This document shows, one piece after another, positions 5,510 through 62,854 of a stretch of 64,000 nt of DNA. The notes beneath the pieces are model-generated. The model saw nothing but the letters and a program-made list of their open reading frames with translations. It made no database searches and was not told where the DNA came from. Position 1 is the first letter of the stretch. Every line of letters starts with the position of its first letter. Made by a program: the position numbers and the translations under genes. Source of the DNA: Prorocentrum cordatum (lineage: Eukaryota); contig CAUYUJ010000004.1 of assembly GCA_963575745.1 (NCBI GenBank), positions 248,001 to 312,000 on the forward strand. The letters are read 5' to 3'.

Positions 5510-5747
5510 CTCCTGTGGCTGAGGCGCGGCCGGACCAAATGTCTCCCTTCGGGCGGCCAGTGGCCCGCGGTGTCCCGCCGGTGTCCCGCTGGTGTCCCGT
5601 GTGGCTGAGGCGCGGCCGGACCAAGTGTCTCCCTTCCGGGCGGCCGGTGGCCCGCGGTGTCCCGCCGGTGTCCCGCGGTGTCCCGCGCTGTCCCGCGGTG
5701 CCCCGCGGTGTCCCGCCGGTGTCCCGCGGTGTCCCGCGGTGTCCCGC

Positions 5748-5814
<67 letters not shown>

Positions 5815-37330: not shown

Positions 37331-37959
37331 AGAGAGTTGTGCCGTCTCGTCGTCGTCCTACTTCCTCTCCCAATCCTATTTGTGCCGCTGCCGTTTCGGC
37401 TCGACAGCCTGCGCGGGCTGCCCCGCGACCGGCCCCCTGTAGAGGCGAGCGGTTGCCTTGCGGCGACAGCTCGAATCTTGCTTGCCGCGGCTTCCGCGTG
37501 CCGGAGAGATCAACGACTGAACCCATGTGCCGACCGCTGAAAAAGAAAGCGGTCGTGCCACTGGGCGAGGACGTGATCTCGATCCATTCTGATGACATCG
37601 TGGATGAGTTTGATTCCGACGTTGCTGGAGACAAAAGCAAAGAGGAAGAGAAATATAACAATGTTCTTCCCACCACAATTCGAAAAGCCTCGCCGCCGGC
37701 TCAGCCGAGCGGGAAGGCCTGCCCACCGGCTCAGCCGGATGGGGCAAGAAACAATCATTTTAGCCCAAATGACGTTGTGCCCGAGATTGATACTAAAATG
37801 GGAACTGATGTCGAGACTATCAATCAGGGAACAACTGCTCAGAAAAGGGCAGCCGAGACTGCCCCCCAGGACAACCCTCGCTCAGAGAAAGCGACTGCCC
37901 CAAGGCTGAAGACGTCGATTCATGGAAAGACAAAGCGATCTTCACGTGCCTACCTGACA

Positions 37960-39966
37960 AACTAAGGGAGTGGTCCCGACCGGGACCCAAAGACGGGACT
38001 ATTACGTTTGTGCAGTCAAAAGGCTGGGGTTGGCGCTACACGATGTGGAAGAACGACATACTCTATGCGAGGAGTGACGCGGTCGTGACCGCATTGAAGG
38101 CGGACTTGGAATCAACGTCTCAGACGATATTCCAGCGTTTATACTCCCAGGTCTCGCAAGATCCATGGACTGTACATTGGACTACGTTTGAGCGGAAGGC
38201 CACCTGCCGTTTCGATTGCGCCCCTCCTGACATTGACAAAATCCCCGTGGGTGCGTTCCTTCAGACACATCCTGATGAGAAGACGAAGTTGATCAGTAGG
38301 ATATACGCGAACCCCCCGGGAGGATATCGTGGCATAGTACGACCGCTCGAGCTGGGAGAAGTATTTGGTCCTACCGTCGGCCCAGCCGTTCGGTGCGAGA
38401 CCCCCCGGGGAAACTGCGCGAGCGTACTGGTGGGGGATCACTGGAGAGAAGGCCCCCCGCAAGCCTGGGTTGACGTTTGGGCGCCTCCCCCCCGAAAGCC
38501 TCCCCAGGGCTCAGCCGCTGGGGAAGAATGGGGAACGATGTTCGCTGTTCCAGCGGTCAAAGGAAAATACAGCGCACCGGTGCACGTGGTCGAGGAAGCC
38601 CTTACCGCCGCCGCAAAGGCGGCATACTTCGAGGATGCACCCAATCAGGCCGTGCACTGGGGGAAAAGACAACGTCCTTGGAAAAGGCCACAGAATTTCG
38701 AATAATGGCTTGCTGGGGACGGACTCGACCCAGGTGCTGATGAGGACTCGCCGCAAAAGAAGCCGAGGACTGCAACGGAGGCGCCTGACGACCCGATCGC
38801 CGTGGGTAGCCAACCAGCAGTCGTGGGCAGTAATCAGCCATCATTGGATAATCCTGGGACCAGGAAACAGGCGGCCGGCGAACCACCTGCCGGCCAGCCT
38901 CCCTACATCGAAAACCCTCCTGGCTTAGCCAGTGGGGGTAGCGGTGGTGCACCGCCCCACGGCTCAGCCGGCGGGGATGGGGAGCAACCACCAGCTGGCG
39001 GGTTTCCCTCAGGAAACAACCCGCCCTCAGGGGGAGGTGGGGGAGGAGGACTGCCGGATTCGGGACTTACAGCGACAGAGCCTGAGCCGGAAGACCGACC
39101 TTACCTCGGTCGCGGCCCTTGGAACGTTCTCGAGTATCTTCGGATGCAAGGGAGGTTCGGGCGCGATCCGACCCCCCCCAAAATGGGTGGCAAGAAAAGG
39201 TGGAAGAAATCCCGGAACTCTATATGGGGGTCACGGATCCAAAGATGAAATTTTGGTCGAATAGCTTGATTTTTGTCCAGAAATGTCAGGCGATCACAAA
39301 GGTCGCCGAAGTCAATGGACATTCGTGGATTCCGTTCACGGGAGAAGACCTTGCCGCTATGTCGTCCACGGGGAAACCCGTGACGGATTTCTTCGCCCGC
39401 TTAGTCAAATGCGGAATGGGTCACATCATAGTTGAACATGTTCTGTTCATATTGTTTCTGATTCTACAATTGTGATCAAAGACACATCAGGGGCGGCTAA
39501 GCCGAGCCTTCTGCCTGAATACAGCCTGCGACAATCAGTGTTCGGAAGCGTACAGGCAGCTATGAATGGAGCACAAATTAAAGGTATTACCGGCACCTCC
39601 GCAAGCTTTCGGTGGGGGGATCAATGGGCTTATGAAAAGGGGACACACATTCCAATTCGCTTCGCTTTCTGGAATTTCAACGACATAGTCGACAATTCAT
39701 CCAAATTAAATGGAGTCGGAAGCGGACCCAAAAGATATCAGAACCCGTTCGCATTTGCAGGGGGCCTCAGACAGATGGTAAAGGACGCCGTGGAATTGCT
39801 CGATGATATAATGCAGCGGTCCCATGAGGGGACTATAGATATAATGTACATCGGCGGGGACTCGAATTGCTGGCAGGAAGGCGAAAACGGCGTCGGTCCG
39901 ATGTGGGACGATGTTGCCACCATGGTCCGAGCCAGAATGAATCGTCGGATTGAACACTACAAGACA
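37960..39966 (+). pseudogene. Copy A cargo: unknown domain, G/P-rich linker and truncated SGNH-like domain
   Basis: ORFs 38010, 38802, 39119 and 39472 are homologous to 51270-53280 of copy B. Confidence 0.75.
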
Positions 39967-42900
39967 ATGCCGCCGCCGCCAATGTCTCATCGACGGGAGG
40001 TAACAGTGGCTCGAGAGCCTCCAGCAGTAACTCCGACAAACGTAAAAAGGATGGGGACAATAATAAAGGCAAAGGCAAAGGCAAAGACATGATCTGTCGC
40101 TCCTTCAAGGAGACGGGCAAGTGCTCGCGTGGCAAAGAGTGCTGGTTTGCCCAGACCACGGACTGTCATCCGTGACAATGGCTCCGCACTGGCGGCTCAG
40201 CCGCCAGTGCCGGAGGAATGGTGCATATAATTTTGTTAAGGGTATTATTTCTTATCTTCCTTGCTCGACGGATGCGGCGAAGCCCGCGTCGGTCAAACGG
40301 AAAGCGGGGGGGTCAGAAGAGACCCGCTGACCAAGTCAGCTTGGGTGCCAATGCGTGCCCTACTCCGTTGTTTCGGGGCCTCCTGGGGCAGAAACAGACC
40401 AGCCCTAAGTTTTTGAAAGCTGTTGCTGATGCCGGCGGAGGAGACTACTGGAATCCCTCCGGCGGTGAGTTTCACCAGGAAAGCAGGAAGCAGGTCGAGA
40501 GTATCGTCAATGTCCTTGCGAATTTCCTGTATCCTCTTTCTCGGGGCGCCATCAAGAAGTACTGGTGCGTCCCCCCTAGTAAGAGTTGCATCCCACATCG
40601 GAACAACGATAGGCGCAATCTCCGTGTCCGTTTTCACCCCTCTGCTGAGGGACCCACTATCACTTGGAGAAAGGCGCGTCGCCACGACTTGAAAGAGTTG
40701 CCTTCGAGTAGCAAAGATAGATGGACATTCCCAGCATAAGTGCGCAGACAGATACCTACTCAGTCGAGGGCATCTACTGCGGAAGCTCTGATCAGAGCGT
40801 CGGACCTGCAAGATGATGTCTGGCATCTCTGGTTGAGAACTGAGGAGGGGGGAGAGTGCCCGCGCGGCGCAGCCGCTGCTGGATGCACAGACAAAGACGC
40901 TGCGTATCTTGGCGCGCTGAGCTTCATCATCGACACTGGGTGTGGGTAAAACATCATAGCGGAGAAATGCATTAGAAGTGCAGGTGCAATGAGATTGATT
41001 CGAAAGCTTCCGCAATCGATCACTCTGAACACTGCTGGGGGAGAATCAAAGGCCCTCGGTTCAGTTCGCATCGCATGTCCCAAATTTAAGGGTGGCAGTT
41101 TTAACGCTTTAGTCATGCCGGAGACTCCGTGCGTGATTTCGGTAGGAGAGCGGTGCATGGATCACGGCTTTGGCTTCTTTTGGCAAGCAGGCCAAAGGCC
41201 CTACCTTTTATTGCCCAATGGCCAAAGAGCGGACCTGGCTGTTGAGGGCAAGATACCATACTTGACCCTATCAGGCAAAGAGGCGCTGGGTCAGTGGATG
41301 TGCGCGGTTGCCGCCGGGGGGGGTGAACCCCCCGAGCGGCGGTGTTGCGTGACGCCAGGCGCCAAGGCATTCCTGGGCAATGTGGAGTCGGCGGGAGGCC
41401 CTCCGCCCCATGCTGTCCAGACTCGCGTAACCATAGACCTGCATACACATGAGTTGATTGGTACCCACAGCTACGCTGATGGACGGCCGACTGAGATCGC
41501 GCCCGCTTTTCCATCTTCAATAGACTCTGCGGATACCATCACCTACTTCTATTATTCGCCTCGAAAGGCTAGCGAAAGCGGTTGGAATCGGACGCCGACC
41601 AGTATCGTTGCCTCCAAAAGTCTTTCAACTTTGCCCGACCACGGTCAAGCCGTCGGTCAGTGCGACGAGCAGCCCGGCAAAGCCGAGGCCTGCGCTGCCA
41701 CATACAGGTGTTCTTATGGGTACGGAGTTTCGGGATACCTTCCTTACGACATAAACCGAGGACTGGACTCCAATGCGTGCAACGCGGCCCCAGGACCCGA
41801 GAAGGGTGCAGTTGGAGACGCTGACGGTGTCGACTTAGTCGACGTCGACGCACCGCCAGATGTAGACCCAGACGATGCGGAGGTTGAGGTGTCGGATACC
41901 CTTGCCGAGCGGCTCAAAAAGGCCGCAGCCTCCCTGCCGCACCTTCTAACTCATACTCCCAAGAACCCATATTGTTCAGTATGCAATTGGGCCAAAGCTA
42001 TCAGAAAGCAACAGCGCAAGGCGCAAAACAAAGGGCTGAAGGTCCCCCGCCCATGCGCTAACCCCACTTCGTTCGGACACCTGACGACGATGGATCATTG
42101 GTTTGCGATGGATGAACTCTCTTGGGGACTCCACGATGAGACCGCGTGTGTGACTTTCCCGACCGAGCTACGGATTTTCTTGCCGCTCAGGGTGTACACG
42201 ACAAGTCTGCGGTTCACGTTTGTAACTTTTTAGTAAACCTGAAAGCCCCGGATGAGAAATTATAGTATTGTTATACAGATGGCGCAAGAGAGCTTGCGAG
42301 GCCATGTTGCGAGCTCAATATTGCCCATGATCCTACCATCCCAGGAAATAAGAAACATAACGCTGTTGTTGAGCGTGCAAATGGCGTGGTGCAGATGGGG
42401 GCCAGAGCCTTACTCAGGCAGGCTGGTCTTCCACCACCATATTGGACCTACGCGGTCCGATATTTCTGTTTACGCTACAATACTAGGACCCCAGCGGAGG
42501 GACAGTCAAGTTGGGAGCGACGCTTTGGATGTAGGTTTGATGCCCCGCTCCTTCCCTTTGGGCCCTCGCACGTTATGTGCCTCCACCTGAGCCCAGATTT
42601 CGGACCGCCAAGACTGGCGCAACGATGATTCCAGGGATACATTTGGGGTACGCGCGCAAAGCGGGGGGATTGGTTGGACCAGACAGTTATGTTGTCCCTC
42701 TGAGACAATTGGACGGTCTGAACATGGAATCAGGGCGTACCCCAGATGGAAAACGACCCGCCATTGAGAAGTCTGACCAGGTGTACAGCAACACATTAGA
42801 TGGTACTGCTGATGACCAGTCGCCTCAATTCCCTTTGCGAAAAGCGTACGAGAAAGCGGCGACAGAAGTACGTTCCGTCACAATCCCTACAGAAACAGGA

Positions 42901-45215
42901 GAAGCTGCGGCCGTCCCAGACGGGCCACAACCAGACGCAGGGATACGACCGGACAACATTTTTAATGCTGATGACCCTGCTATTGTTATGCCACCGCCTT
43001 CCCAAGAAGGCGAGGACGCTCCACACTTCGACTCAGAGGCCGATTTAGAAGATGACGGCCCAGGAGGTTTGTGTGTGGGTGACGAGCCTATGGTAGTTGA
43101 CCGCAGGGATCCTCAGCGCGATTCCCATCCAGCAGATAAGAACCAAAAACTGGGACTCGCACAACTCGAGTATCGTTTGGACAGACAGTCCAACTTCTCA
43201 GCGGCCAAGCCGCGTGAGAAGGTTCCCGGGAAAGGACAACTTCATGCTCGAACAACTCAAACCTGAGCACGATGGAATACTTCGAGGACAGACGAATCGT
43301 TGTTGGACTTTCACAAGAAGAGCTAACGCAGAAGCTTCCATTGACAGGTCGTCGAAAGACGTGCAGCGCTCGAGTTGTTCTTTATTACGACCCCGAATAC
43401 GTGCCTATAACTCGCGTGTGGGTAACAGACCCAGACCTGAAGCACAGTGCCCAATGGCTGAAAAAGCTACCTGAGTCCACCAATCCTGGGATGCATCCTG
43501 GAAGATGGTTCAATATGAATCACTCACAACGACGACAGGCCGTGGAACAATACAAGGCAGAAAAGAGATGGTTTTTCGGCATAGAAGATCCTGGCCCTTG
43601 CCTAGGCCTTCTGCGTGACATTGGCTTGGATGTGGATGATCCACCGACTCCGCCCGAACCCGCAGTGGCGCAGCCACTTGCGGCCCTTCCTGAGGCCAGG
43701 CTAACAGCGCCGAAGGTGGCTGAGCGGCTGCGTCATTTGAAGAAAAACAGCCTGTGCTACACCCCTGGCAGCGGACGTGGGGCGGCGTCGCGACCTACCC
43801 AGGGCGGCCAAGCCGCATCTGTGGCAGATGAATCCTCAGAGGGAGATGATTATGTAGGACATCTTTCGGATGATGAGGATATTTGGTGGAAACAGACATG
43901 GTACGGAGGTGCAATTGCGCGAGATGGAATTCCCTCCGGCTCAGCCGGTAGGGGCCCTTTGTCCGAAGATGATGATGACAAGCCTGAGAACAATAGCGAG
44001 GCAGGCCAGACCCCGAGTCCGGCGGCCGCCGCATCGCGGCGAAGCGTGCTTCGAATGCTATTACAGCATAGCTCGTCTACAGATCTCAGTCATCGTGAAA
44101 AAGAGAGGTTTGATTTGCAATACTTTTACAACCCGTTTACTGACCTTATCTCAATCGTCGATGAATCCTTCCAACTTCCCGACGACTGGCAACACGCCCA
44201 CATTGATGCCGTTGTCGCCAGATCTGTATCAAAAGACGAGGCCAAGGCGAATAAAGATGCCCAGGCTGCCTTGAGAAAAGAATGGGATAGGTTGCGCGAT
44301 ATAGGCACATGGATAGAGAATGGTGTCAGATAGTACTCCGATATGGTTGCCGAACTCAAGGGAAAGACGGCTCACTTTGGTCGGCTATTTGCGATCCTTG
44401 TTGAAAAGAACTCGGAGTTACCGTTAGGACACAAAGGTCGCAAGTATAAGGGACGGGTAGTTTTTGATGGTTCGAGTTTCAGAGATCAGAATAAGATGTG
44501 GCATTATTTCAGGAACTTTCCAGCAGCCCTGCTACAATGCAGGCTAGCAAAGCAGCTGACACCTACGGGCTATTCGACGGCCATAGCATCGAGCAAGCGA
44601 AGCTAGGAGGCACCCCCACTTGGGTTTTTTCCTCGAGACGAATGGCCTAAATAATGGTCTCACATGCGTAATCCTGTATGCCCACTGTATCTATCATAGC
44701 ACGGGCACCCTGATTCAGGTGGATATTGGGAGCAGCATTGTGAGGGACATGTCACGGCAAAAGGTTTTGTGAAGTGCAGTCCGTGGCGCAGCTGTTATTT
44801 CCACAAAGAAATGCAAATCTTTCTGATCATCTATGCTGACGATTTCAAGCTGTCGGGACCTGCCGACAAGCTTGCGGAGGGCTGGAAATTACTGCAAGAA
44901 CCTTCTGATAACTGTCCCAAGGGAATTGAAATAGACCCTCCAACAGCTGTTGGAAGATATTTGGGATGTGAACATAGAATGTCAACGCGAACGGTTGCAT
45001 GGCAGGGAGAGTTACCTACAATCTTAGACCCGCCTCCTCCCAAGGTTAAGAAAAACGCTTCCGTCGCAGACGAGAGTAGCGAGGAGGAATCGGGGGGTGA
45101 CTCGGCGGCTCAGCCGCCCGAGCCATATCAGCCGAGAGAACCGAAACAAGTCAAAGTCATAGAATATGACATGACAGAGTTCTTTGAGTCCTGTGTAACA
45201 TCATATGCTCAATTA

Positions 45216-46430
<1,215 letters not shown>

Positions 46431-46544
46431 ACTGACATGGGTGAGGAGGAGGGGAGAACATTATCTATCCATCTCACGTCCTAGTCCTCCCACTGAGGAG
46501 GGTGAGGAGGAGGGGGGGTTCTGCGATGAGGAAGGCTTCATCAT

Positions 46545-47160
46545 CGTGATGGTGATGACGATGGTTTTATCGCTGTTCACGATGACGATGACAATGGCGA
46601 TAATGGTGATGGACGATGACGATGGCGATAACGGTGATTATGATGATGCGGATGATGATGACGATGATGGTGATGACGATGACGATGATGACAACGATGG
46701 CGACGACGACGAGGATGATGATGCAGATGCTGGTGATGATGACGATGCTGCTGCTGATGCTGACGTTGCTGGTGCTGTTGATGATGATGACGACGATGAT
46801 ACTGATGATCATGACGTCCACGATGATGCGGACGATGGCGATGCCAAGGACGGTGATGGTGATGATGATGACGATGCTGATGATGATGATGACGATGATG
46901 GCGACGACGATGATGATGATGACGATGACGCTGGCGATGATGATGATGATGATAATGATGATGATGATGATGATGATGATGGTTATGATGATGCCGATGA
47001 TGATGACGATTATGATGATGATGATGTTGATGATGTTGATACTGATGATGGTGACGATGATGCTGATGATGACGACGACGACGGGGTGACGACGATGCTG
47101 CTGATGATGCTGATGATGACGACGATGATGCTGGTGATGATGATGATGATGCCGAGGATG
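46545..47160. repeat. Degenerate (GAT)n microsatellite
   Basis: Directly visible. Confidence 0.95.
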
Positions 47161-47785
47161 AGGACGAGGGGGAGCAGGACGACGAGAAGGAGGAGGAGGA
47201 GGAGGACTCGCTTGAACGAGGAGGGTCGCGGACAGCATTACTCTTTACCAGGCTTCGTAGGCCTCCCCCCTTCCAGCGGGGCCCCGCCAGAGCGAAGAGG
47301 GCATCAAGAACCCGTACTATTTACAAGGCTTCGTTTCCTGAGCACCTGTCCTCCCGCCTCCTTTCTTTCGTCTGCCCTTTCGTGCGTACTTACTCGTTCG
47401 ATGAGCTTCTCCTTCGTGTTGATGTTGTCGTACCCCATGGGTCCCACGAAACTGTTAATATCTTTATGTGGGGAACTCCGTTAGCATAATTTTACCATTG
47501 ATTGGACTGCAATCGATTCCACTGGGTTTGCACTTGATTGGCTTGCAACCGATTGGATTGCAACCGCTGGGGGGGCCCACAGGGCAGCGACGAGGGGGCG
47601 GCGACGGCATGGTGACGGCGAGCAAGGAACCGCCAGACCGACCCTCAGGCCAAGACGACGGGCGGCGACGACGCAGCAAGGGGGGGCGACGGCAAGGACG
47701 GAAAAACCAGACCGCCCCTCAAGCCCAGACGACGGGCGGCGACAGGGCGGCAACGGCGAGGAGAGAGCCGCCAGACCGCCCCTCA

Positions 47786-48352
<567 letters not shown>

Positions 48353-50004
48353 TCAACGTTGGTTCAGGCCCTCCTGATCAGAAGATAGAAGTTCTTGGCC
48401 TTGACGCCGCAGTAGCAAGCCCTGATGACCCCGAGCCACCGACTCAGTCGGGTGTGCTTCAACCTATTGCAGCAAAAATATTGATGAAGATACTTGATGG
48501 CGCCAGAATGGCCAGATACGACCTGCTCCGTGCTGTATGTCAAACTGCCAGTTGTATTACAAAATTGACAGAACAACGAGACAGGGATCTCTTCCGCCTC
48601 ATATGTTATATCAAATGTACCTCTCATTGCCGTTTGACTTCGTGGGTAGGTGACAAAAAGGAAGGGGTTCTGTTAAAGCAATATTCGGATGCAGACCTGG
48701 CAAGTGATATTCGCACGCATCGGAGCACGAGTGCCAGTGATCAAGCCATTTGGGGCCCATACACTAGAGCTGGACAGTCTATGGGATCGCAGCGACAAGC
48801 GTGTGTTTCCCACAGTACACTCGAGGCAAATATTGTCGCTGCTGACCTTGCGTTGCGCAAAGAGCTGCTTGCGGCGCTACCGCTTTGGGAAATACTGCTT
48901 GACAGACCAGTACGATGTCTATTTTTGGAAGATAATCAAGCGGTTTGTAAAGCCATCAAGGCAGGTGGGTCAATGCAATTAATACACCTACCGAGAACAC
49001 ATAGAATTGATGCTGCAGCTGTGTCCGAACAGTTTTGTCGCGGCCTTATTGAGCTCCAGTATGAAAGAAGTCAAATCGAGGCTGCCGATATAGGAACCAG
49101 AAGATTCATTGACCCTTTGGCTTGGGTTTAAGTTTTGTATCTTGTCAACATTGTTACACCCAAATTCTGGGCCGCTAAGCGGTACCAAGACTATCTCGAC
49201 TCGATGTTTTCCGACGGACTTACCTTGAAATCGGGGGGGATTCTAAAGCCCCGCTTGGGCCCCAGTTCGGCCTTGCGGAGAGGAGCTGTCATACCTAGCA
49301 AAAAGATGATCAAACAGAAAAAGCGCCCCAACAAGGGTAAACCCGTTGAGGCCGCCCCCGGCAAAGCCGTGGAGGCATGCGCTCCCAGCGCAGCTGCGAT
49401 TGCGGATGCATCTGGCTTAGCCGAAGATGCACGCAATATTACTCCTTTAATGACCGAAGAAGGTTACAGCAGAAGCTCCGAGAAAACGAGAGCGATGGAT
49501 AATATAACAAAGAAAAGTTCTGATCGCGAAATGAGAACAATGTTCGACATGGCGGATCGTGAAAATGAGTCAGATACTTCGACGCTACCGAAAATTATGG
49601 GAAATATTCTCAATAACAACCGTTTTCTCCCTCATCCTCCACCTGCTGCGGCTGCCAGTTATCTAAACAAAAAGGACACATGTATACAACAAGGACAGAG
49701 TTTGAAACGATGGCATTCTGTTCCGAGACTTGTTACGTTCATGCCTGCAATCGATGATTGTCCCGTCGACCTGGAAAAGTGAGATGATAGGCGCCACACC
49801 TATGCCGTTAATACCCAACAAGGTTTGACGATTGACCGCATTGACAATTGGCGTGACAAAGGGAGTAAATATCATCACCCACTTGAATAGAATTCGAATG
49901 GCGATTCCAGCGATGGTGACTATTGCCCGAGTAGATGGACTGGATACACAGAGTTCTGGATCCGAGAAGATTGCGCCCCGGCCACTCAGTGGACCGGGGA
50001 AAGG

Positions 50005-50635
50005 CTTTTGTTAGAATGCTGTTGTGGCCCTCAGAGCAGGATAGGAGACCCAAAGAATTTTGTCGATAACTCATGCAAGGTGATTCGATACACTGAGAAG
50101 GAAGATATGAGGACGAATGAGGGACTTAGAATAGCATTGAACGACATTAATACGTTCAAGGGAAAACATATTACGTTGTGGGGTTCTATGCCTTGCACGG
50201 GGGGCTCTCCCTGGCAATATGTGAACGAAGCGCATTATTTTCGTGCTGGAAAGCATAGAGCGATGCGTAGGCTTCGTGGTATTAGGGCTGATTTCAGATA
50301 CCTGTTTTGGAACTTCCGGGAGATTGCCCGCGCTGTGCACAAAGCGGGGGGCGTTGTTTGTATTGAATGGCCTACCCAGTGGTTTCACGAGAGAACTAGA
50401 GTTTGTTAAGACGGCGTTGCATGGATGTGCGTACGGATTAAATGATAGCAAGGGTAATTACATGACAAAGCCCTGGACGATAGCTACTACCTCCTCTGTT
50501 GTTGCGCAGGGACTTGAGCGCAGATGTGATGGCGCACACGAGCGCGTTGAGGCTAGAGGACGAGAATACAAGAGCGCAGAAGATTACACGGATGCTTTTG
50601 CTGAGCAGGTCCATTTCGTCATTGCCTGTGCCGCT
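50005..50635 (+). pseudogene. C5 DNA-methyltransferase-like domain, copy B (frameshifting deletion near 50380)
   Basis: ECCCG, WGSMPCTGGS, CIEWP, GCAYGL...KPW, RCDG. Confidence 0.8.
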
Positions 50636-52759
50636 GAGAGATCTTTGTCGTCTCGTCGTCGCCCTATCCCCTCCTCTGATCATGTTTGTGCCGCTGCCGT
50701 TTCGTCTCTAGAGCTTGCGCGGGCTGCCCCGCGGCCGCCCCCCCCTGGGATCGAGCGGTTGCCTTGCGGCGACTACTCGAGCCTTGCCTGCTGCGGCCCC
50801 CGCGCGTCTGAGAGAGCATCGACCGAGCCCATGTGTCGACCGTTGAGTGACTCAGCGGTTAAGCCGCCGGGGGAGGACGTTGTTTCGGTCCGCTCAGACG
50901 ACGTCGTAGATGATTTCGTCTCCGACTCAGTCGGAGAGGAAAACCAAGGGAGAGAGATCAACGATGATGCCCCTCCCAACACAATTCGAAAGGCCACCCC
51001 ACCGGCTCAGCCGAGAGGGGAGGCTCGCCCACCGGCTCAGCCGGGCGGGGCAAGGGATAACGACTTCAGCCCGAATGATGTCGTATCCGAGGCGGATATC
51101 GAGATGGAAGCTGGTGTTGAGATTCGTGGCGAAGAGATAACTGTTCGCAAAGGGGCAGCAGAGGCAGCCTTCCGGGATGGTCAGCCCGCAAAGAAAGCAG
51201 CCAATTCCAATACAGGGGAAATCGACTCCTGGAAGGATGAACCGATTTTTCGATGCTACCCTGACAAATTGAGAGAGTGGTCCCGACCGGTGCCTACCGG
51301 GGAGACCAAATTTGCACCCACGAAAGGATGGGGTTGGCGCTGCACGATGTGGAGGCATGACATACTTCACGTGCGGAGCGACGAAGTCGTGACCGCGTTG
51401 AAGGCAGACCTGGACGCGACGTCACATACGATATTCAACGTTTGTACTCCCAGTTTTCGCAAGACCCGTGGACAGTACACTCGGCGATGTTCGAGCGAAA
51501 GGCAACTTGCCGTTTTGATTGCGCCCCCCCTGACCTGGACAAGATTCCAGTTGGTACGTTCTTTCAGACGTATCCTGACGAAAAGACGAAGTTGGTCAGT
51601 AAGGCGTACGTGAACCCGCCAGGTGGATACCGTTGCACAGTTCGAACGCTCAAGATAGGAGAAGTCTTCGGTCCCACTGTCGGCCCAGCTGTTCGATGTG
51701 AGACTATCTTTGGAGACTATGTGAGCGTGCCAGTGGTAGATCGCTTGCCTGAGGGCCCCCCTCAAGTCTGGGTGGACATTTGGGCCCCTTCTCCCCGAAA
51801 GCCTCCCCGTGGCTCTGCCACCGGGGATGGCTGGGGGGCGATGTTCGCTCTCCCAGTGGTCAAAGGCTTATACCACGCGCCAGTGCATGTTGTCGAGGAG
51901 GCCCTTACCGCCACTGCAAGAGCGACATATTTCGAGACTTCTCCTCAGCAGGCGGTCCACTGGCGGAAAAGGCAGCGCCCGTGGAAAAGACCGCAGAACC
52001 TCGATGAATGGTTTGCCAAAGATGGCCTCGATCCAGGGGCCGATGAGTACTCGGCGCAGAAGAAGCCGCGGACGGCAGCAGAAGCACCGAACGACACAGT
52101 CGTCTCGGCCAGCCAACAAGCAGCCTCGTACGTCAATCAGCCCTCATTGGGCAGCCCTGGAGCCGGACGACAGGCGGCCGGCGAATCATCCGCCGGTCAA
52201 ACATCTGGCAACAATAACCCTCCCGGCGCAGCCGGCGGGGGAACTGGTGGCGGCCCACCCCGCGGCTCAGCCGGTGGAGGTGGAGTTCCACCAAAATCAG
52301 GCGGGTCCTCTTCGGGAAACAATCCACCCGCCCACCCCTCCTCAGGAGGTGGTGGAGGGGGAGGACCGCCCGACTCAGGACCAGCCGCAGCTGAAGCTGA
52401 GTCTGACGATCAGCCGTGCATCGGGCGAGGCCCCTGCAACGTCCCAGAGTATCTACGGACGTAGGGGGCTTTCGCGGAAGATCCCAGGCACCCCATGAAC
52501 GACTGGCAGGAGAAGGTGGACGAAATTCTAGTTTCTATATTGAGGTCACGGATCCGAAAATGAAGTACTGGGCGACCAAACTGACCTTCATTAAACAGTG
52601 ACAGGCCATTTCTCAGATCGCCAAAGTTAGCGGACATTCATGGATCCCGTTTATAGGAGAGGACCGCGCGGCCATGTCGGACACGGGGAAACCCGTGACA
52701 GATTTCTTTCGCCCACTGAGCCTAATGAGAAACGGGTCGAAGACTTCTTGGTCTTGTTC

Positions 52760-53400
52760 TGTCCACATCGTTTCAGATTCTACAAGTGCATTCAAGGATG
52801 GACCCGGGAAAATGAAGAACAGCCTGCTCCCTGAATATAACCTGCGAGAATCGGTGTTTGGAAGTGCGCAGGGCGCCATGAGTGGAGCGCAGATTTCGAA
52901 CATTCGTGATGCCTCTTCAAAGTTTCGGTGGGATCAGGGCGGGTACTACATAAAAGGGGCCCACGCTCCGATCCGTTCTACCTTCTGGAACTTCAATGAC
53001 ATTGTTGATAACTCATCTCAGCTAAACGGAATTGGGAGTGGGCCAAGAAGACAGGATAACCCGCTCGCATTCGCAGGAAGCCTTAGGTTCATGATAAACG
53101 ACGCCTTTGCGCTGGTTGACGAAGCGCTTTGTCGTTCATCCGAGGGGGCGATTGATATAATGTTTGTTAGTGGGGACCACAAGTGCTGGCAGAACGATGA
53201 CGGTGGCGTTGACCCGATGCGGGGCGATGTTGCCACCTTGGTCCGAGCCAGAATGAACCGTCGGATCGAACACTACAAAGCAACAGGAATGTTTCCTAGG
53301 ATAATGATTCTTGACGGAGTGGGCCTCTACTGGCAGCTGAGACACCGCCCAGGAGACATTTTTCATTGCGGTGCCAGCCACCCGGACTACAAACTGAACA
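52760..53400 (+). pseudogene. SGNH/GDSL hydrolase-like domain within the retrotransposon cargo
   Basis: HIVSDST (block I Ser), MSGA (block II), FWNFNDI (block III), GDIFH (block V DxxH), in the correct order within ORF 52674..53597. Confidence 0.65.
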
Positions 53401-54759
53401 ATGGAGGGCGTATTGAAAGCGTGAGTGCTGGTCAGTTGCGTGCAGACTGCATGATCAAAACGGCCAAGCTAGCCGTATTATGTTTCTGCCAACCTTCTGG
53501 CGGCTCAGCCGTCCGGGATGGTCATATTACGTGCGCGACGAGAGAAGACGGGCATGCCAAGCAGGAGGCGGACATTAAAGACCGAGTCATGCACTAGCAG
53601 GGCTGGGCTCCTGCTGTGGGCAATATACCCACGTCGATAGTTAATGCCCGCCCGTTTAAGGCGCCATTGATTGACAACGATTTTCCAGCCGTCTCAGACG
53701 GATCTGGAGGTGGTGCAGTACACTCATTTTGCTCAGAGGCTTTTGTGAACTTTCTTAAGAAGGGAGCCGCGTATAACGACTTTTTCCCATGGAAGGATGA
53801 TGTCTACTTCTTGCCGCGCGGAGAAACTTTCTGTCCTGGAATGCCACCAAAGGGGAAGAGCCAAATATCGGAGGACGAAGGCGTGCACAATGATGAGCCT
53901 ATGCGTACTGCACTCAACGAACTGAACAAGGCAGCGCCAGCGGCTGCACCGAGCGGCTTAGCCGTCTCGGTGAGTGGCGCGACGTCGGGCGACATAGCTG
54001 TCCCTGTCCACGTCGCACCATCAGCTGGTGCTGCTGCTTCGGCCGGAGATGCCAGGCCCGGCGGCTCAGCCGCCACGGGCTCTGGTTCCAGAGCGCGAAC
54101 GGCTCAGTCGCCTCGCGCTCCCCTTTTGGCGCCACCATCTGGTATCAAAGAGATAGAGACACCCGGTGAAGCGGCAAAAAGATTCATCCGTAATAAGTGC
54201 CCGGAGGGAGGCGAAACTAAGCTCAGCAGCAGATGCAAATCCCCGAAGCGGCCAAAAGAAGGTAGCCCTGGAGAAGAAGAGCCCTTCTGGCCGCATTGTC
54301 TTCCATACCAGCAGACAAAGAGGTTGCCTTTTCAAAGCTCATCAGGAACATAAATCACATATCATGATTTTCTTTGTCCATTCACGGTTGCTAGCAAAAA
54401 CTTCCATCGTGGCATGATGCCAGGGAACGCCTACCCGGGCGAGGAAGGCCGCGTTGCAGAGGTCGCGCAAGGGAAGAATCCTGCTAGAAGCAAGCAACAG
54501 AAAATGGTTCAGAAAGCAGCTAACAGCGAAGCGTGGCTGGCTTTCCAGTTGCTGCATAAGTCAACAAAAGTCCCGCCTGCGACACCGAGTTACATAGTTC
54601 CCAATTGGGCACGTTTCTTTAGGATCACAGCCGACAGATCGATAGCAAGCTCGAAAGCCACTGTGGCTGATCGCTTGAACTGGGCTAAGCTAGCGGTGAA
54701 GACCCATGAGGTGGGCAGGGCCCACTGCGTCGAACTTTCATTGCCTTTCTTCGTGACAG

Positions 54760-55110
54760 ATGAAAAGACTGCGGAAGTCTCAGACTCATCCGCAGGTTGG
54801 ACAAAGCAGTCACACGGTACGTCTGTGACTGCACTTCATGCAATACTGGAGGGTCATCAATTGCTCCCTTCGGATTCCAGATACGGAGGGAATGTTAAGA
54901 CGCATGCGGTTGGGGTATATTTTCCCCATGTGCTGATAACCCCAGTACTCACACCGCGTATTCTGTTGCTGAGGAGACCTTTGGAGATGGTATTTGGGTA
55001 ACTGCTGAGATTGTTTTCTATGCCAAAAGGCCAAAGGCCATAAGAGGATCGCCGACGCAGTATGTGAGCGACTCAACGGGCGATGCGTTGCATGAGCTTC
55101 GACTATACCA
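54760..55110 (+). pseudogene. PARP-type ADP-ribosyltransferase-like domain (one frameshift at ~54921-54927)
   Basis: SHGTS...ILEGHQLLPS...GVYF; after a 1-nt correction SP...AYS...FGDGIW...QYV. Confidence 0.65.
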
Positions 55111-57808
55111 TTGGGCCCCGGCAGCGCTGCGCGTTGCAGATGCGCGGGCGCACTTGCTGCATGTTGCCAAACAGAATGGTTGGAATCTGGAGCAGGACTT
55201 TGAGGTCGAGAGATGCCGAGGTGAAAATCGGACGGCGGCCACGGACAAAGTCCGGGAGGCACAGATGGCCATTTGCCTGGCAAAGGGGACAGAGCCCTTA
55301 CTTTGATAACGAAACTTTTGGCAACATTTGGCCCTGGCTCCAAGAGAAGGGAGTCAGGTTGACCAAGATTCATGCAATACACAGGAGTGAGGTCTCAGAG
55401 GAGTCCGCGAAGCTGGTCGAACAAAATCGACAGGAAAAAGAGAAGGCGACAAAGGCGGCGGAAGCAAAACAGGTGGACCGGCGGCTAAGCCGTCCAGCGC
55501 CCAATTTTCGATTGAGACCGGGGATTCCCCGATCCTGGGACAGACTCCTGCGACCCAAGAGAGGGCGTGCAAGGCGCCGCCCCCGGGGCCGTGACTTGGC
55601 CCTCTACTCTTAAGGCCCCTCCTCATCCTAAGGAGGGATCACCTTATGGAGGACCGGGAGAGATCGCCACCCCCAAAGGGGCTCCACCGGCGATTCAAGC
55701 ACCGACGCCGCCGCCGGCCAAGAAGCCGAGCGTTGCAACGCAGGGGAGTGTACCGCAGGCAAAGGAGATTATGCCCAAGAAAGCTCCGCCTCCGCCGCAA
55801 TTTAGACCAGAATCACAGATGGTGGGTCCTCCGCCAGCGAAGATGCCCCGAGTTGAAGGAAACCTTGCGGCATCCCCGCCGACGCAGCCAGAGGCAAAGC
55901 CGGGAGGCAAGGACGCGGCTGGCAGCCCGCCTTGGAAACCAAGTATTCTTGATCCTCCGCCCAGTTTGACCGAATTCATTGGAATCAATGTTTCCGACCC
56001 TCCGCCTATCGATCAGAGCCATCAGAATGCTGAGCCTCAGTATAAATCTGCACCTAGAGGGGCCAGGCGCTGGGGAGACTCACAGCATGCCGATGGCAAT
56101 GCTGCGCGATATCAACCCGCAGAAGAGCAGAACTCCGTTGAAAGCGCATTGATGGCCGAGGCGAAAGCTACCCCCGCTGAGGAGGCGGCTCCTGCCCGAG
56201 ACGGAGATGAAGACACATTGGACATCCCAGGAGCACCCCCCCCCGACTCAGTCGGATGGGGATCATTCATCTGAGGACTCGCCAGTGTTAGTCGGAAGCG
56301 ATGATATAATTATTATCTTCCAAGTCATAAAACACGTCTCGAGTATACACTTCTCGCGCCCCGGGGCATACAGTGCATTGAAAAATGAAAACAGTTATTT
56401 TACCATTGGCGCGGCCGCAGATCGAGAGCGCAAGAAACTTGACAGCCCGAGACTGCCGAATCCACAAGGTGCAGAATAGAAGAACATTGACCAAATATCT
56501 ATTCCACTGTATGGAACAGATTTGCAGATGCTGTTGTCGAGCAGATCCATAAACCGGAACCAAATTTTATCCGCGCTCCTATAGTGCGTGAGAGACCCAG
56601 GAGGTCTAGACGTGAAGAGGCAGGTGGTTCGGGAGCGAGCGTGACAAGAGTACCTACTCCTCCTGCCCCTCCGTCCGGCTCAGCCGCGACGGCTAATCTT
56701 CCGACCCCTCCGCCTGGTCCAACCAGAGCGGAGCATGATGATCAGCTGGACACGCATCAAGAACAGTCGTCTCCCACGGTGGTTCCGTCTCCTACGGTGG
56801 AACCACCGGACGAGGGGGCAACATATGTTCCCAAGGCATCAGCAATGCACCCGGATGTCTCAGGCAATCCGGGGATCTCGGGGGCAGACGCTGAACCTGA
56901 GGATATTACAACCTTTCCATGCGACAAGGACCCCGCGCTCATTGCTTCTATGGAAGACGAGACTTACCCTTTTGGTCCAGCATCTGGAAATATGTTATGC
57001 AGAATGAGTCTGCCGCCTGCTCCTGATAAGAGACAGAGCGAGCCCCCGTCCGTAGATCCTAGTGATGGGGGTCAAGACGTCGTCGCGGGGCATGCTGTCT
57101 CATTCAAGGGCAGACAGCTGTATCTTACGACAGAAGAACGCGGACGAGTCAGTCGAATAACACTTGGACCGATGAAACAGAAGGTCCGCGACGCACATAT
57201 GACTGGCCCCGTTCCGCCGCATATCGAAGCCATCCGCAACCAGACGGGGAACGCGCTTCGCTGCATTGAATTTGCGGAAGACCAGATTTTCGCATTGTTG
57301 AGCAGCCTCAGCCAAGCTGACAGCACGTTTGAACAGGCAACAGATTTCCTCAGAGCTGAATTTCATTTCGATGATGTCCCAGAAGGATTTACTCCAGAGA
57401 CCTTTGCGTGCCTGGAGCCGCTGGTAGTTGGGATCGACGACAGCGTTAATCCGGCTGCATTGGGCAGTGCGGACACGTGTTGTACCCAGAGCTGTCGAAC
57501 GGATATATTTGCTGGGAAAAATATGCAAATGTGCTGTGTATCTCGCGAGGCATTGCTCTGACTATGCGAGATCGTCGGGTGGCTGGGTCTAAGACCTGGC
57601 GCAGGAAATCGAAGAGGACGGTTTTACTTTTCAATCGTATGCTCTTGCTGCACGCGGCTTAGCCGCGTTGCCGCCAGAGACAGTGGAAGTTTTGGGAATA
57701 CTTCCTAAGGATAGTGACAAGATTGTTGGAACCAGTGTTCGCAAAATGTGGACACGATATAAGGCATGCCCATCGCACGATATCGTGTTCATGGAATGCG
57801 GACACGAT

Positions 57809-57846
<38 letters not shown>

Positions 57847-60800
57847 CGATACCGCCATACCTATTTTCCATCGAGCATGCCAGGGACATTCAACATTCGT
57901 TGCTTCTATTGAAAGGATGTGTGTCCCATATGACCCTGGCCAAGTCAGGAGTCATGGATCTCTTTTTTCATATCACGGACTTGCAGACATTTTTGGAACC
58001 TACGGATGGAAGAGTCCGCTTTCCGAAGAGAGACTCAGGGCTCTGTCGGGAAGCAGATTATGATTTGCTGAGGCTGCTTCCGACGAAATGGAGCCCAACA
58101 GTGCCTGACCCCACAAGTATTCCCTCGTGGCTCAGCCAGCGGAGGTGCGGAGAACCTCCCCCCCCAAGGAGTTTTGTGCCCATGGGGCGTGAGGCACAGA
58201 GAGGAGAAACGCCATCGGTGGGGACTTGGCCCGCAGACGACACCATCCACCTATGAGAACAACTTCCCAGCCATCGCGAGTCCTGGGAGCTTGCTCTTGT
58301 TGTCACCGGCCGAGTGCTCACTCGCTTCTCACGCAGGATTTGCCCAGACGGGACCCTGGTGTCCCGAGAGGTGCCGAGATTCACCGACATTGACAGAGCC
58401 GTCTCCCTCGTTAGACAAACGAACCAGATGCGTTGGTCGGTACTTTTCGATCGCGAGTGGGCCTCGTACGAAGTGACTTTCGACAACGAGTGGATTATTG
58501 CTTGGATTCACGCAGACGAGATTCTGTTGTTGGCTTGGAATCGTCGGCCAGAGCTGTCGCCCGAAATACAGGAACGGGTTCTATTCGTCCCTTGGGAAGA
58601 TGATGGAAGGTTCCTATGCTTCCGTTATCACTGGGTGAGAACGGGCTTTGAACATTGTCCGGTCTGCAGCTGTCGAATCAAATGCAAGCACAGAGTCACT
58701 CACGATTACATGTCTCAGACGTGGAATCTTGAGATAATCCCGCGGTCCCTTGAGGCGAATGGACTTGTACTACGGGTGAGAGATCACGCCAATCTTCCCT
58801 GGAACCGTGCCCAATGGATCGAAGTGCGTGGGGATGGACAACAGAGGGCTTCTGCGCTCGTAATGAAGAACATCAGCAGTAATCATCAGCAGGAGCGAAA
58901 ATGGGCGAGTGGGGAATATGTTAAGATGGCTGCATCAGGCCAGATATTCGGCAACAGCCTGCCAGGCAATTTCCCTGCTTGGGTACCAACGGACGCCGTG
59001 GCTCAGCCGCCGGCGCGCCATGGCCCTTTCTTCCAGTATTTGAGGCCCTTGGTCAGAAGGTTCATAGGATGGCTTGAATACTCAGCCAGAAGGATGAGAA
59101 GGCGCACCCCAGCGATCAATACCTGGTGGCCGCTGCTATGGAAGACGAATATTGGCCAGTATGCTCGCCCAATATCTTGCCCAGCTTTGGCAGCCTTCGA
59201 CTGGCCAAGTGTACGGGGCGACATAGTCGAACCAGTGATAGGCTGGGAGAGATGGTATAGCGACATGACTAGAACAAATGTCTTCGCCCCGACGCTTCAA
59301 ACAATTTATGGCGCGGCGGCCTTGGGGACACCATGGTTGCCTGTGCAGAATGAAGACGTTGCGGAAGACGTAGGAGAAAATCCTAGAGGGCAAAACCCTC
59401 GCGGACGATTGCCGGTCGTCTGGGAGAACAATTTCAGGGCGAGGCCGACTCGCAGTTCTCAGTCCGTTGCAAGACGGATCAACGAATGTGAGGACCATCG
59501 CCTCATAGTGCCAGCGTTGCTACCTGCCACCGGCGCAGCCGCGAGGGCAGGCGAACAATCACAGATGGGACTGGACTTCTCAGCGATCAGCGGGCCTAAG
59601 GCTGCGCTGATAACCGAAGGAGCGATCAACCTCCATCAGCCCAACGGATATGCATACAACCACTGCGAAGACCCTTCAGTTGAAATAGTTTTGTTTGGGA
59701 TAGAGGCAAGGGCGATTGCAGCTCAATGTGTTATCGAATACACAGGCATACGCCCAAGTGATCCCCATAGGATACAACTGATCGGGGAAGTGGAACATGA
59801 GGTCCCACCCATTGTCAAGGACATAGTTGATGGAAGCTGGTTGGCCTCCGTACAGCAGATGCAACTGGGTCTTCGTCCCATAAGAATTGTTGCGATCGTT
59901 CGCGAGACTATGAGCTCCTTCATTTCGGAGGGACATTTTATCGGTTACCCGGGGCGAGTAATTCGCCCCGACGGAGCGAGCACGGACCTCATTGCTAAGA
60001 TGCGACGGAAAGATGAATATGCTCTTGACTGCCGCATTCGCGCCGCCGTTCAGACGGACGACATACTAGAGGAATGGGCCCGTAATCTGGGCAGGAAGGT
60101 GCAGACTGACGTCCGTTGCAAGGGTGCTCTGTTGCAAGAGGCCATTTCTTGGCTTCAGGACAAATATACCGATCCTGGGACAGAGCTCCAGGATTTTGTC
60201 GCAGGACCGTTCCGCACTGCATGCGGAATATATGGTATCCCAGTAGCTACCGCTGCTAGGAGTTTGTTAAAATTTATGCGAGATCGTGAGAATAGACACG
60301 ACAATCCACACCACGGCGGCGAAGCCGCTCCCGTGGGACCAATAAGGGCACAGGACGAGGTGAAAGCCAGACCACCAGCAGCACCTCGACCGCTCAGACC
60401 CGACGTCTCAGACGTTCGGGCTGCCGATGACGCTACCGAATCCCCGCGTTTGTCGCCGGCTCAGCCGTGGCGACGAGAGAGGAATACTCAATGCATTCCA
60501 ACGCTTGGGATCGGTCGGTGCCCCGGCGCGCGCGCGATGGGGCCATGGGCGCGGGCCGCGGCGCTGCTGGCTACGACCCGCGCGTGTCCTACCCGCGCTA
60601 CGTGAACGATGTTCATGTCGGGCACTACGTCCACCGGGACCGGATCACGTGGTTGTCCGACGAGGTCTGGTGGACGCTGGATCTGTGGCATACGCTGTCT
60701 ACGTTTGAGCATGACGCTCACTTCCCGCTGAATAAGGGGAAGGCGTCCAAGAACCAGGAGAAGAGCTACAGTGCTGCAGATCATACTAGCAAAGGAAAGC

Positions 60801-60916: not shown

Positions 60917-61190
60917 GATCCGCCCGCGTGACTTAGTCGCGGCAGGCGCATGCATGGAAGTTCCCGTCCACGCGCGGCGCGCGTGTTGGACGGGCTAACA
61001 ACTCTACTGGTCGGCTAAGCTGGTCCAGCGGAGAGAACTTATTTTAACGATGTGGGAGTCGTCGGGCCTCTTCGGCCCTTAGCCCTCTGGCGGCCACCGT
61101 TGAGCGGTATTTTTTTTGTGCGGTTCGCTCCGGTGGTTGTAAATAATTAGGCCGGGGGTGCTGTGGCCGGATGGGCTCTACGAGGCCCGC

Positions 61191-61200
61191 CGCGGGGGGG
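61191..61200 (+). promoter_or_regulatory. Polypurine tract (GCGGGGGGG) before the 3' LTR
   Basis: G-run immediately 5' of the LTR start. Confidence 0.75.
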
Positions 61201-61544
61201 AGTAAATATGCTCCTCTCCGCTTCATAATAATGTATACATTATGACCCATCTTGCATGCTGCGCACTGTCTGACTCGAACTAATGCTGCATACTGCAGCT
61301 GTTTGTTTACTCAACAAGCTTTTGTTTGCTTGCAGGAAAGAAAAGGAGCGCGCCTGCCCTCGGCCGTCGCGTGTCGTTGGTCGTCGGCGGGCCGGCCTCC
61401 TCCCTTCACATTCCTGATGCAGTAAACTTGCTTACCGGATACTTGTCTTATCGATGTATCATCCCGCCCCGTCTCTCCCTGAGCAGAGTGGACATGAGAT
61501 CTTAATTCCTTTGGCATCTTACCCCGATTCTCAGAGGAAAGACT
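61201..61544 (+). repeat. 3' LTR (344 bp), AGT...ACT
   Basis: Homologous to 24146-24490; roughly 80% identical by eye. Confidence 0.9.
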
Positions 61545-62854
61545 GTAGGGTTCGCATGTGGCCCCCCATGAGGAAGTTTTTGTTCAAGGGCGAACGGCGG
61601 CATGCATCTATGTCGGAGCTCCGCGCGGATTTCTTGTGGGCGCCGGGCCCTCCTGGCGGCGCCTCCTGCGCCACCCCTGGCGCGCTTCGCGCGCAAGTCG
61701 GGGAGGTCCAACGCCGATCCCGCAAATCTGTGCGGGACTTAGAGAAATCTGGTCTGTGCAGTTTTTGTTCCTCTTGGAACGTGTCTGGGTAACCACCTGA
61801 GGTTTTTGGGCGTTTCTGGAAATCATCGCGGCTGGACGCAGCTCGAAAAGCTGGCCACGACAGTTCCCAGGGGGGGGCTGGTAACCGGTTCGGAGCGGAT
61901 TTGCGTCGGAGGTAAGGCGAGGGTGGTGGCTTTCTAAGACGTTTTTTTCAGCAGCGTCCGATCTTTTTATGGAGCCCACTTGTTTCTGAAAAGGCACTCC
62001 GGCCGCCTGAGGTCCCGCCCTCTTCTGCCCTGTCTCCCTAATTCAAGCTGTGCGTCGCCCGCCTAGCTTTTAGCGGAAGAGGTTCGCTCTCGCCCCGCCG
62101 ACCAAAAAAACATGTTTCTTAGAAGGCCACCCCACCTCGACCCACCCCCTTGTGCGCGCCGCGAATCTCAGGGTACCTTGCCAGGCTGCCCTGACATCCA
62201 GGCGTTGTGAAACACATGCGACGAGCGTTCTGGCTATGTACGTTCTGGGCCCGGGGACCCCAGCGGCCCGGGACTCCAGCATATCGATCCCCTGCGAGCA
62301 AGTAGGCCGATCATTAGATCTAGAGGTCCCGTCACGTTTTTCGACAGATCAATTCTGTGCACGGCTTGTAACTCTCACGCGGCACAAATCCACAACTATG
62401 CGTTGGTTGGCGCTGGAAGTTTTAATCGTTTTATGTGTCAGTTGACCAAGGCGATTTGTTGATGCTGCTGCCCCGTCGCGGGGCAGCTCCAAAGAAGTTC
62501 CTCTCTAGAGGGGCTATTGTTCAGCGTTCCTTCGTTGCGGATGCTTATTTCCTGGTCTTCCTCTTTTATTTATGCTGCGAGGAAATAGTGAAGAATTTGC
62601 ACACACACACACACACACACACGCCCCTCGGCAGGGCGGGTGGGCCGTCTCGGGAGGAGGAGGGAGAGGAGGAGGAGGAGGAGGAGGAGGAGGAGGAGGA
62701 GGAGGAGGAGGACCAGTGTACACCCAAGACGCATCAACGATGTGGCAATACACCCTGCCTCCAAATTCCCTCTGCATTGGCTTCTACAAGAAATTATTGA
62801 ACATAAAATAGCACCCCATAAAAAGACAACCGTCTGAAAACAATTTTACCAAGG

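Follow-up and report, generated by a model that had tools for sequence, protein, structure and literature searches.

We describe a conserved, multicopy protein domain of ~195 residues (54534-55129) encoded in a 64,000-nucleotide stretch of Prorocentrum cordatum DNA (contig CAUYUJ010000004.1, positions 248,001 to 312,000 of the forward strand), hereafter referred to as the window. The domain very probably lies inside a copia-like long terminal repeat (LTR) retrotransposon, in a coding extension downstream of pol. The order and spacing of its motifs, together with matches returned by a protein language model, suggest that it probably adopts a highly divergent ADP-ribosyltransferase (ART) fold of the poly-ADP-ribose polymerase (PARP)-like type, that is, of the H-Y-E clade typified by diphtheria toxin and the PARPs.

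Conservation, copy number and decay of the domain

The domain is divided between two reading frames of the plus strand (Table 1). Translation of frame 0 (54354-54998) reads ...GWTKQSHGTSVTALHAILEGHQLLPSDSRYGGNVKTHAVGVYF and then continues into unrelated residues, and that of frame 2 (54899-55303) reads ...SPCADNPSTHTAYSVAEETFGDGIWVTAEIVFYAKRPKAIRGSPTQYVSDSTGDALHELRLYHWAPAAL.... The N-terminal part follows the string WLAFQLL...NWARFF..ADR..ATVADRLNWAK..beta-hairpin..W..QSHGT..LHAILEGHQLLPSD..YGG.VK..GVY, and the C-terminal part contains DNPSTHTAY, EETF, AEIVF and TQYV, followed by ELRLYHWAPAAL, and further reads ELRLYHW after TQYV. The SHGT motif occupies 54810-54821 (HGT, 54813-54821; His codon, 54813-54815), the Tyr codon of GVY 54918-54920, the second Tyr codon 54959-54961, the Glu codon of AEIVF 55007-55009 and the Gln codon of TQYV 55058-55060, with the spacing H-(35)-Y-(14)-Y-(33)-Q and the His ~90 residues into the domain. 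The first-pass annotation of the window had described a peptide with HGT followed by GVY, and a one-base break near 54924. Both are present: the frame 0 translation carries the peptide as described, and the change to frame 2 falls where the break had been placed, with relatives running collinearly across it. The GxYF pattern that had been read there holds as far as GVY; the relatives have Ser at the next position, and the Phe marks the frame boundary.

Searching 1.84 billion cluster representatives with the N-terminal half of the domain (107 amino acids; E<=1e-3) matched 23 proteins, 18 of which proved on reading to be true relatives (E 3.1e-29 to 5.5e-5). The others (P0007, P0018, P0023, P0024 and P0026) are long repeat proteins that matched by composition and were dropped. 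Most of the relatives are short fragments, with P0009 and P0016 reaching 499 and 313 amino acids, respectively, and four of the fragments bear the source name "eukprot ... Pyramimonas_sp.", Pyramimonas being a green alga. On sequence grounds, the family would belong to a GC-rich eukaryote, probably a green alga of the pyramimonad type. When a 5.8-billion-protein collection was searched with a family profile, 7 proteins were found among the 8000 candidates scored, of which P0027 and P0028 were new; P0027 is a 626-amino-acid unbroken frame that begins at SHGT. Five proteins (P0009, P0016, P0027, P0022 and P0017) are unbroken and collinear through the point at which the window copy breaks, reading GVYS or GAYS...D.P..HT.Y..EETF. 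The tblastn alignment of P0009 runs collinearly over 53703-55018 (E 2.6e-41), and P0016 and P0027 can be aligned as far as ~55303. The relatives form two subfamilies, window-type and P0009-type, that are only ~35% identical to each other. Within the window, no second copy of the domain was found. Among JGI metagenome contigs, the family profile confirmed 0 of 144 pattern matches, and a locus that had been retrieved there with the N-terminal half of the window domain (L001) was on inspection a chance pattern match. No relatives were found in IMG/VR viral contigs, and tblastn of P0016 and of a bacterial PARP-like open reading frame (see below) against phages gave no match.

The first-pass annotation had staked its proposal on the conservation of the His and Tyr residues across copies. 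Counted over all sequences covering each column, the His of HG[ST] is kept in 9 of 13 sequences, the first Tyr (GxY) in 6 of 8 (otherwise H or F) and the second Tyr in 6 of 6. The Gly and T/S of HG[ST] are kept in 10/12 and 12/12, respectively, the Gln of TQYV/DQWC in 4/4 and the aromatic residue after it in 4/4. The exceptions at the His and Tyr positions sit in short fragments, possibly those of decayed copies. Taken whole, the domain is real and conserved far beyond chance.

It is also multicopy. In X1, one DNA sequencing run (organism A) that may be the window's own source sample, 841 contig pieces with at least 80% identity align to 53500-55700 (58 at 99% or above, 155 at 95-99%, 272 at 90-95% and 356 below 90%), differing from the window mainly by transitions. 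A few related pieces occur in a marine-metagenome run (X2), and two further runs from X1's study contained none; no RNA run was among the sequencing runs listed. These copies reveal the state of the one in the window, whose accessory frame is interrupted by in-frame stops at 53595 (TAG) and 54351 (TAA). Both stops are sense codons in every covering X1 contig (15 of 15 at 53596; 7 of 7 at 54351), which rules out an alternative genetic code as their source. In-frame copies, the existence of which the first-pass annotation had envisaged, do occur: 4 X1 contigs (depth 17 of 93) carry a one-letter indel relative to the window at 54921 and are in frame. Because other copies share neither the stops nor the frame change, the breaks represent private decay, and the window copy is dead, a pseudogene.

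Evidence on the fold

PARPs present their motifs in the order HG[ST]...G.G[IV]YF[AS]...S..Y...E[YF], and the position of the His and the overall size in small PARP catalytic domains are similar to those found here. Bare motif strings are weak evidence: translation of the window in six frames contains HG[ST].{25,45}G.Y[FSA] a single time, where residue shuffles give an expectation of 0.11, which is unconvincing across a scan of many windows. A different line of evidence comes from a feature search of the ESM Atlas. With residues 283-475 of P0009 and named clusters only, 25 of the 30 matches belong to the PF00644 PARP set. The best is a eukaryotic cluster, 89% of whose members carry PARP (score 0.95, 159 shared features), and other matches, at 0.91, are to clusters with PARP on 98-99% of members. 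Residues 1-205 of P0016, searched unfiltered, matched one cluster labeled DarT/PARP 38% at 0.92, the remaining clusters being unnamed. Each of these matches alone is only a lead. We give them real weight because PARP had been named beforehand from the motifs and was then returned by the model from among thousands of families.

Several results speak against an ART fold or limit the weight of these matches. PF00644 gave no match even at E<=10 with either half of the window domain or with P0016, P0009 or P0027; phmmer and family-profile hmmsearch against the PDB found no ART, and neither did PADLOC or PHROGs. Divergent ART families are often missed by sequence-to-profile searches. Shuffled proteins reach an ESM Atlas score of 0.95 in ~1 of 100 cases and 0.9 in 4-10 of 100, the 159 shared features fall below the 170 typical of same-family matches, and for a third of shuffled proteins, the ten best matches share one family. 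The language model may, moreover, be reacting to the same short motifs that had drawn attention to the domain in the first place. AlphaFold2 models built from the family alignment reached mean predicted local distance difference test (pLDDT) scores of 46.9 (P0016 as the first row) and 42.4 (P0009); the motif region scores below 50, only the N-terminal NWARFF...beta-hairpin part exceeds 70, and both models are too poor to show whether the ART split beta-sandwich is present. A Foldseek search with the former model, which is too poor to inform, gave no match at E<=1e-3; the matches listed included no ART, the weak ones being to unrelated structures such as adenovirus fiber knobs. At the motif positions themselves, the His gives way to Q, N, L or R in 4 of 13 sequences and the Gly is replaced in 2 of 12, and the catalytic Glu is absent from all four sequences that cover its position. 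The Glu of AE[IV][IV]F (5/5) and the EETF motif (6/8) are conserved and lack an assigned role.

Profile-profile comparison was made against Tpt1 (14 sequences) and DarT (15 sequences) profiles built from bacterial genomes, and against a single PARP-like open reading frame (L011). With hhalign, the family matched Tpt1 at E 0.099 (reversed control, 0.42) with the HGT motifs in register, the family SHGT..L..iLE.g.L.P being placed on Tpt1 LYHGT..l..I..eG-L.p. The match to DarT reached E 0.26 (reversed control, 0.33), and that to L011 E 0.053, out of register (reversed control, 0.15). The known related pair, Tpt1 and DarT, scored E 0.067, no better than the family, and hhalign is thus without power at this alignment depth. 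L011 had emerged from a genome search with PF00644, in which 1 of 401 Actinomycetota matched, marginally, and 0 of 401 Pseudomonadota. This sole match, a 155-amino-acid actinobacterial frame (G023:C29, 1258-1722) reading ..AFHGTS..GTGVYFA..S..SY.., scores 26 bits versus the PF00644 cut-off of 26.7.

An alternative reading, which we consider somewhat unlikely, is that of a conserved accessory domain with a different, unrecognized fold, in which HGT, G.Y, Y and Q[YW] bear a chance likeness to PARP motifs and the language-model matches would merely track these strings. In its favor, hidden Markov model (HMM), PDB-sequence and structure searches gave no evidence of an ART; the simple motif arises by chance often enough to be frequent in a many-window scan, the ESM Atlas scores and feature count lie within the chance or distant range, the clusters nearest to P0016 in the unfiltered search are unnamed, and the His is kept in only 9 of 13 sequences. 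However, chance likeness sits poorly with four motif positions being kept in order and spacing across subfamilies as divergent as these, with the predominance of PARP among the named matches of P0009 and the PARP/DarT cluster matched by P0016, and with the fact that the sole ordered hhalign alignment to an ART family sets HGT on HGT. Collectively, we regard a highly divergent PARP-like fold as probable. The PARP-like H-Y-Q proposal of the first-pass annotation is plausible in view of the H, Y, Y and Q, which are kept with their spacing, and of the PARP clusters of the ESM Atlas; HMM and PDB sequence searches, which returned no ART, did not bear it out.

The retrotransposon and its surroundings

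The domain is situated ~5.5 kb downstream of an RNase H stretch, within a 3' coding extension that exceeds 10 kb, in what we read as a very divergent Ty1/copia-like LTR retrotransposon (Table 1). Its location inside an LTR element, as originally proposed, agrees with the presence of an LTR pair, of tracts resembling a primer-binding site and a polypurine tract, and of integrase (IN), reverse transcriptase (RT) and RNase H (RH) motifs upstream on the same strand, in a pol in which Pfam recognizes no domain.

Table 1. Coordinates in the window of the candidate LTR retrotransposon and the putative PARP-like domain
Feature	Coordinates	Strand	Remarks
5' LTR candidate, ~345 bp	24146..24491	+	self-BLAST partner 61201-61545
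Internal unit copy A: integrase-, RT- and RNase H-like motifs, then unidentified coding sequence	29619..39962	+	self-BLAST and motifs
Internal unit copy B, tandem to A	39959..53278	+	self-BLAST and motifs
Accessory reading frame with PARP-like domain	52602..55303	+	2 in-frame stops and 1 frame change
Putative PARP-like domain, N-terminal part	54534..54923	+	frame 0
One-base frame change, frame 0 to frame 2	54921..54926	+	private to some copies
Putative PARP-like domain, C-terminal part	54926..55129	+	frame 2
Further accessory coding sequence, several broken frames	55130..60605	+	includes 782-amino-acid open frame 58257-60605
G-rich purine tract, polypurine-tract-like	61184..61200	+	directly 5' of 3' LTR
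3' LTR candidate	61201..61545	+	self-BLAST

The two LTRs are 82% identical (287/350), and the element spans 37 kb, including a ~10-kb internal duplication, the unit length being ~24 kb. The string directly after 24491 resembles, as an imperfect match to the consensus, the tRNA-iMet-type primer-binding site of copia elements. All long open frames between 24.4 and 60.6 kb are on the plus strand. Judged by motifs only, internal copies A and B both follow the order IN, RT and RNase H on one strand, and integrase before RT is the copia order. Copy A carries integrase-like motifs (HHCC, D-62-D-31-E) at 31608-32040, the RT motif IIYVDDFKLSG at 34526 and an RNase H-like stretch at ~35.3-35.9 kb; the RT motif of copy B is IIYADDF, at 44832, and its RNase H-like stretch lies at 48301-49131. 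Stretches at ~35.3 kb and 48.7 kb follow the pattern YSDAD.A.D...RST...EA...A...DNQ...AD..T of the copia RNase H region. Copy B further contains ~3 kb of short-period repeats (45.3-48.3 kb) between its RT and RNase H regions. In self-BLAST, the two copies align in three blocks, 29619-34968 with 39959-45274 (84.5%), 34987-37043 with 48302-50378 (81%) and 37085-39962 with 50391-53278 (73%), with identities similar to that between the LTRs. The unequal values suggest that the halves derive from different, recombined family members rather than from a recent duplication.

The assignment to an LTR retrotransposon has to contend with two negative results. In the element's frames, the Pfam RVT_2, rve and RNase H models yielded 0 relevant families at E<=0.01 or at E<=5, and the five bases outside the two LTRs differ, so that no target-site duplication is visible; one could have decayed given the 18% divergence of the LTRs. 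Searches of the PDB with phmmer found no match for the IN and RH stretches, and the accessory coding sequence, including the 782-amino-acid frame, had no Pfam and no PDB match. The lineage of the element is apparently very far from curated retroelement models, with Pfam-A recognizing neither its pol nor its accessory sequence.

We also considered whether the stretch at ~53.3-61.2 kb is foreign to the element, being either a fragment captured from a host gene or another repeat that was nested or recombined into it. The stretch is single-copy in the window, whereas the pol-side unit is duplicated; no target-site duplication is seen, and in no relative does a single protein carry both the domain and RT, IN or RH, because all of the relatives derive from contigs of at most 2.9 kb or from short fragments. 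The nearest case in the literature, a Fusarium gene model that fuses a PARP protein with integrase and RT domains, is most simply explained as an annotation join. A foreign origin is nonetheless very unlikely in our view. The stretch lies on the same strand as pol, and the boundary of the duplicated unit at 53278 falls within an unbroken open frame (52602-53597), which ties the domain-bearing part to the pol-side part. Furthermore, the purine tract and the 3' LTR come after the stretch, self-BLAST detects no internal repeat pair flanking it, and it is itself highly repeated and diversified in the manner of a transposon part, as the 841 contig pieces attest.

Several other features of the window stand apart from the domain. 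A string at 57840-58060 (plus strand, frame 2) that reads FHRACQGHS...(~30 amino acids)...FSYHGLADIFGTYGW recalls the Tpt1/KptA signature IRA.QGHS...YHGT; it was rejected as Tpt1-like, as its match to the Tpt1 HMM (E=1) ties with those of unrelated frames and is probably due to chance. Imperfect short-period repeat arrays (9, 12 and 16 nt) occur at 45230-48200, 46588-47118, 5694-6044, 17033-19000, 1705-2136 and 28173-28742; many are GAG/GAT-rich, and some lie within open frames. An open frame at 7374-8357 (plus strand) encodes a CCHC zinc knuckle (PF00098, 21.0 bits versus a cut-off of 20.8), which suggests that it is the gag of a second retroelement upstream. On the minus strand, 8935-13221 forms a 1428-amino-acid open frame that may belong to another mobile or viral element; Pfam detects in it only thymidylate synthase, below threshold (residues 852-943, E 1.6e-4, 21.4 bits versus a cut-off of 24.3). 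Finally, the GC content drops to 0.39 at 20001-22000, versus 0.50-0.64 elsewhere, with a G-over-C skew of 0.65.

Possible activity and comparison with known systems

In PARPs, the His of H-G-[ST] binds nicotinamide adenine dinucleotide (NAD+), and the Tyr of G-x-Y-[FS] and a second Tyr 10-15 residues further on stack on the nicotinamide. If the domain has the PARP-like fold, its pocket for the nicotinamide and adenosine ribose of NAD+ would comprise the His and Gly of SHGT, the Tyr of GVYS and the Tyr of HT.Y, and the conserved Gln (DQW/TQY), followed by an aromatic residue, would occupy the position of the catalytic Glu of PARP1. PARPs that lack this Glu transfer single ADP-ribose units or none, and poly-ADP-ribosylation would thus be unlikely; in sequence terms, Gln at the third position fits the H-Y-X mono-ART or pseudo-PARP subgroups but not the poly-ADP-ribose polymerases. 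We know of no human PARP with an H-Y-Q triad. By analogy, intact copies would at most attach single ADP-ribose units to proteins or nucleic acids, and they might do no more than bind NAD+ or ADP-ribose. The catalytic carboxylate might instead be supplied by EETF or AE[IV][IV]F. Targets might be sought, speculatively, among host silencing and repair factors or among the element's own replication intermediates and nucleic-acid ends. That the domain is an active transferase seems to us less likely than not. The full proposal, in which a giant copia-like family of prasinophyte-type green algae would encode its own active PARP-fold H-Y-Q mono-ADP-ribosyltransferase, directed at host silencing or repair proteins or at the nucleic-acid ends of replication intermediates, appears doubtful.

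The substitution of the catalytic Glu by Gln in all four covering sequences also raises the prospect of an ART-fold pseudo-enzyme, which would serve as a binding domain for NAD+, ADP-ribose, nucleic acid or a host protein and would transfer no ADP-ribose. Pseudo-PARPs often lose the His, Gly, Tyr or aromatic positions, whereas the His, the Gly, both Tyr residues and the aromatic residue after the Gln are kept here, and PARPs with an H-Y-(non-Glu) triad are active mono-transferases; a pseudo-enzyme accordingly seems unlikely to us, and it is somewhat less credible than a wholly different fold. It has precedent among inactive host PARP-fold proteins that act in transposon control: the DUF3715 of TASOR is described as a pseudo-PARP domain in transposon control (PMC10578480), and ZAP/PARP13 as restricting retrotransposition (PMC4441479). 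A domain that mimics, blocks or decoys a host PARP-like transposon restriction factor is a serious alternative.

Were both the fold and the activity confirmed, no earlier ADP-ribosyltransferase would be known to form a standing part of a eukaryotic retrotransposon. In the open-access literature searched, there is no described case of a PARP or other ADP-ribosyltransferase domain in an LTR retrotransposon. ADP-ribosylation is central to host-parasite conflict, as exemplified by bacterial toxins, DarT, the phage enzymes Alt and Mod, and antiviral PARPs pitted against viral macrodomains; the present domain, if confirmed, would mean that a eukaryotic transposon, too, deploys this chemistry in the conflict, and would add a very divergent, Gln-triad branch to the ART fold. 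Each known case of an accessory domain has revealed how LTR elements deal with their hosts. The ~24-kb unit, a pol that escapes Pfam and an unidentifiable coding sequence of more than 10 kb indicate that much of algal mobile-element biology is uncharted. Pyramimonad genomes are known for their large size and for their wealth of LTR elements and viral insertions, as in Cymbomonas.

Compared with the PARP/ARTD family (PF00644), above all with its mono-ART members whose third position is not Glu, the domain shows the same order and similar spacing of HG[ST], the hydrophobic helix (..IL..G..), G.Y[FS] and the Tyr that comes ~14 residues later, followed by a polar residue with an aromatic one after it and by a closing hydrophobic strand, at a similar size. 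It differs in that neither Pfam nor PDB sequences matched it at the thresholds tried, in the Gln at the catalytic position, in the short stretch (33 residues) between the second Tyr and the Gln, in its own invariant motifs (EETF, AE[IV][IV]F and NWARFF..ADR..VADR) and in being encoded by a retrotransposon rather than by a cellular gene. With the RNA 2'-phosphotransferase Tpt1/KptA (PF01885), it shares the HGT...L..I...G.L.P signature, the hhalign match being nonsignificant, but no Arg-His-Arg-Arg tetrad context is recognizable in the domain. The likeness to DarT (PF14487), another family of the ART fold, is no better than that of the reversed control.

The element, for its part, resembles Ty1/copia (Pseudoviridae) in its LTRs, the IN-RT-RH order, the YVDD motif and the RNase H-region pattern. 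It departs from that group in that the Pfam models for the pol domains do not score and in the length of its unit, typical copia elements measuring 5-9 kb. In being unusually large and in carrying a conserved extra domain downstream of pol, it is akin to LTR elements with acquired domains. Such domains include the chromodomain of chromoviruses, a DnaQ-like exonuclease and an AlkB-type m6A demethylase, the last encoded by an open reading frame of 25-kb orchid Ty3/Gypsy elements, and domain acquisition is rare (PMC9289625, PMC6338049). Unlike the orchid elements, the present one is copia-like, and its accessory coding region is far larger (>10 kb) and otherwise unidentifiable.

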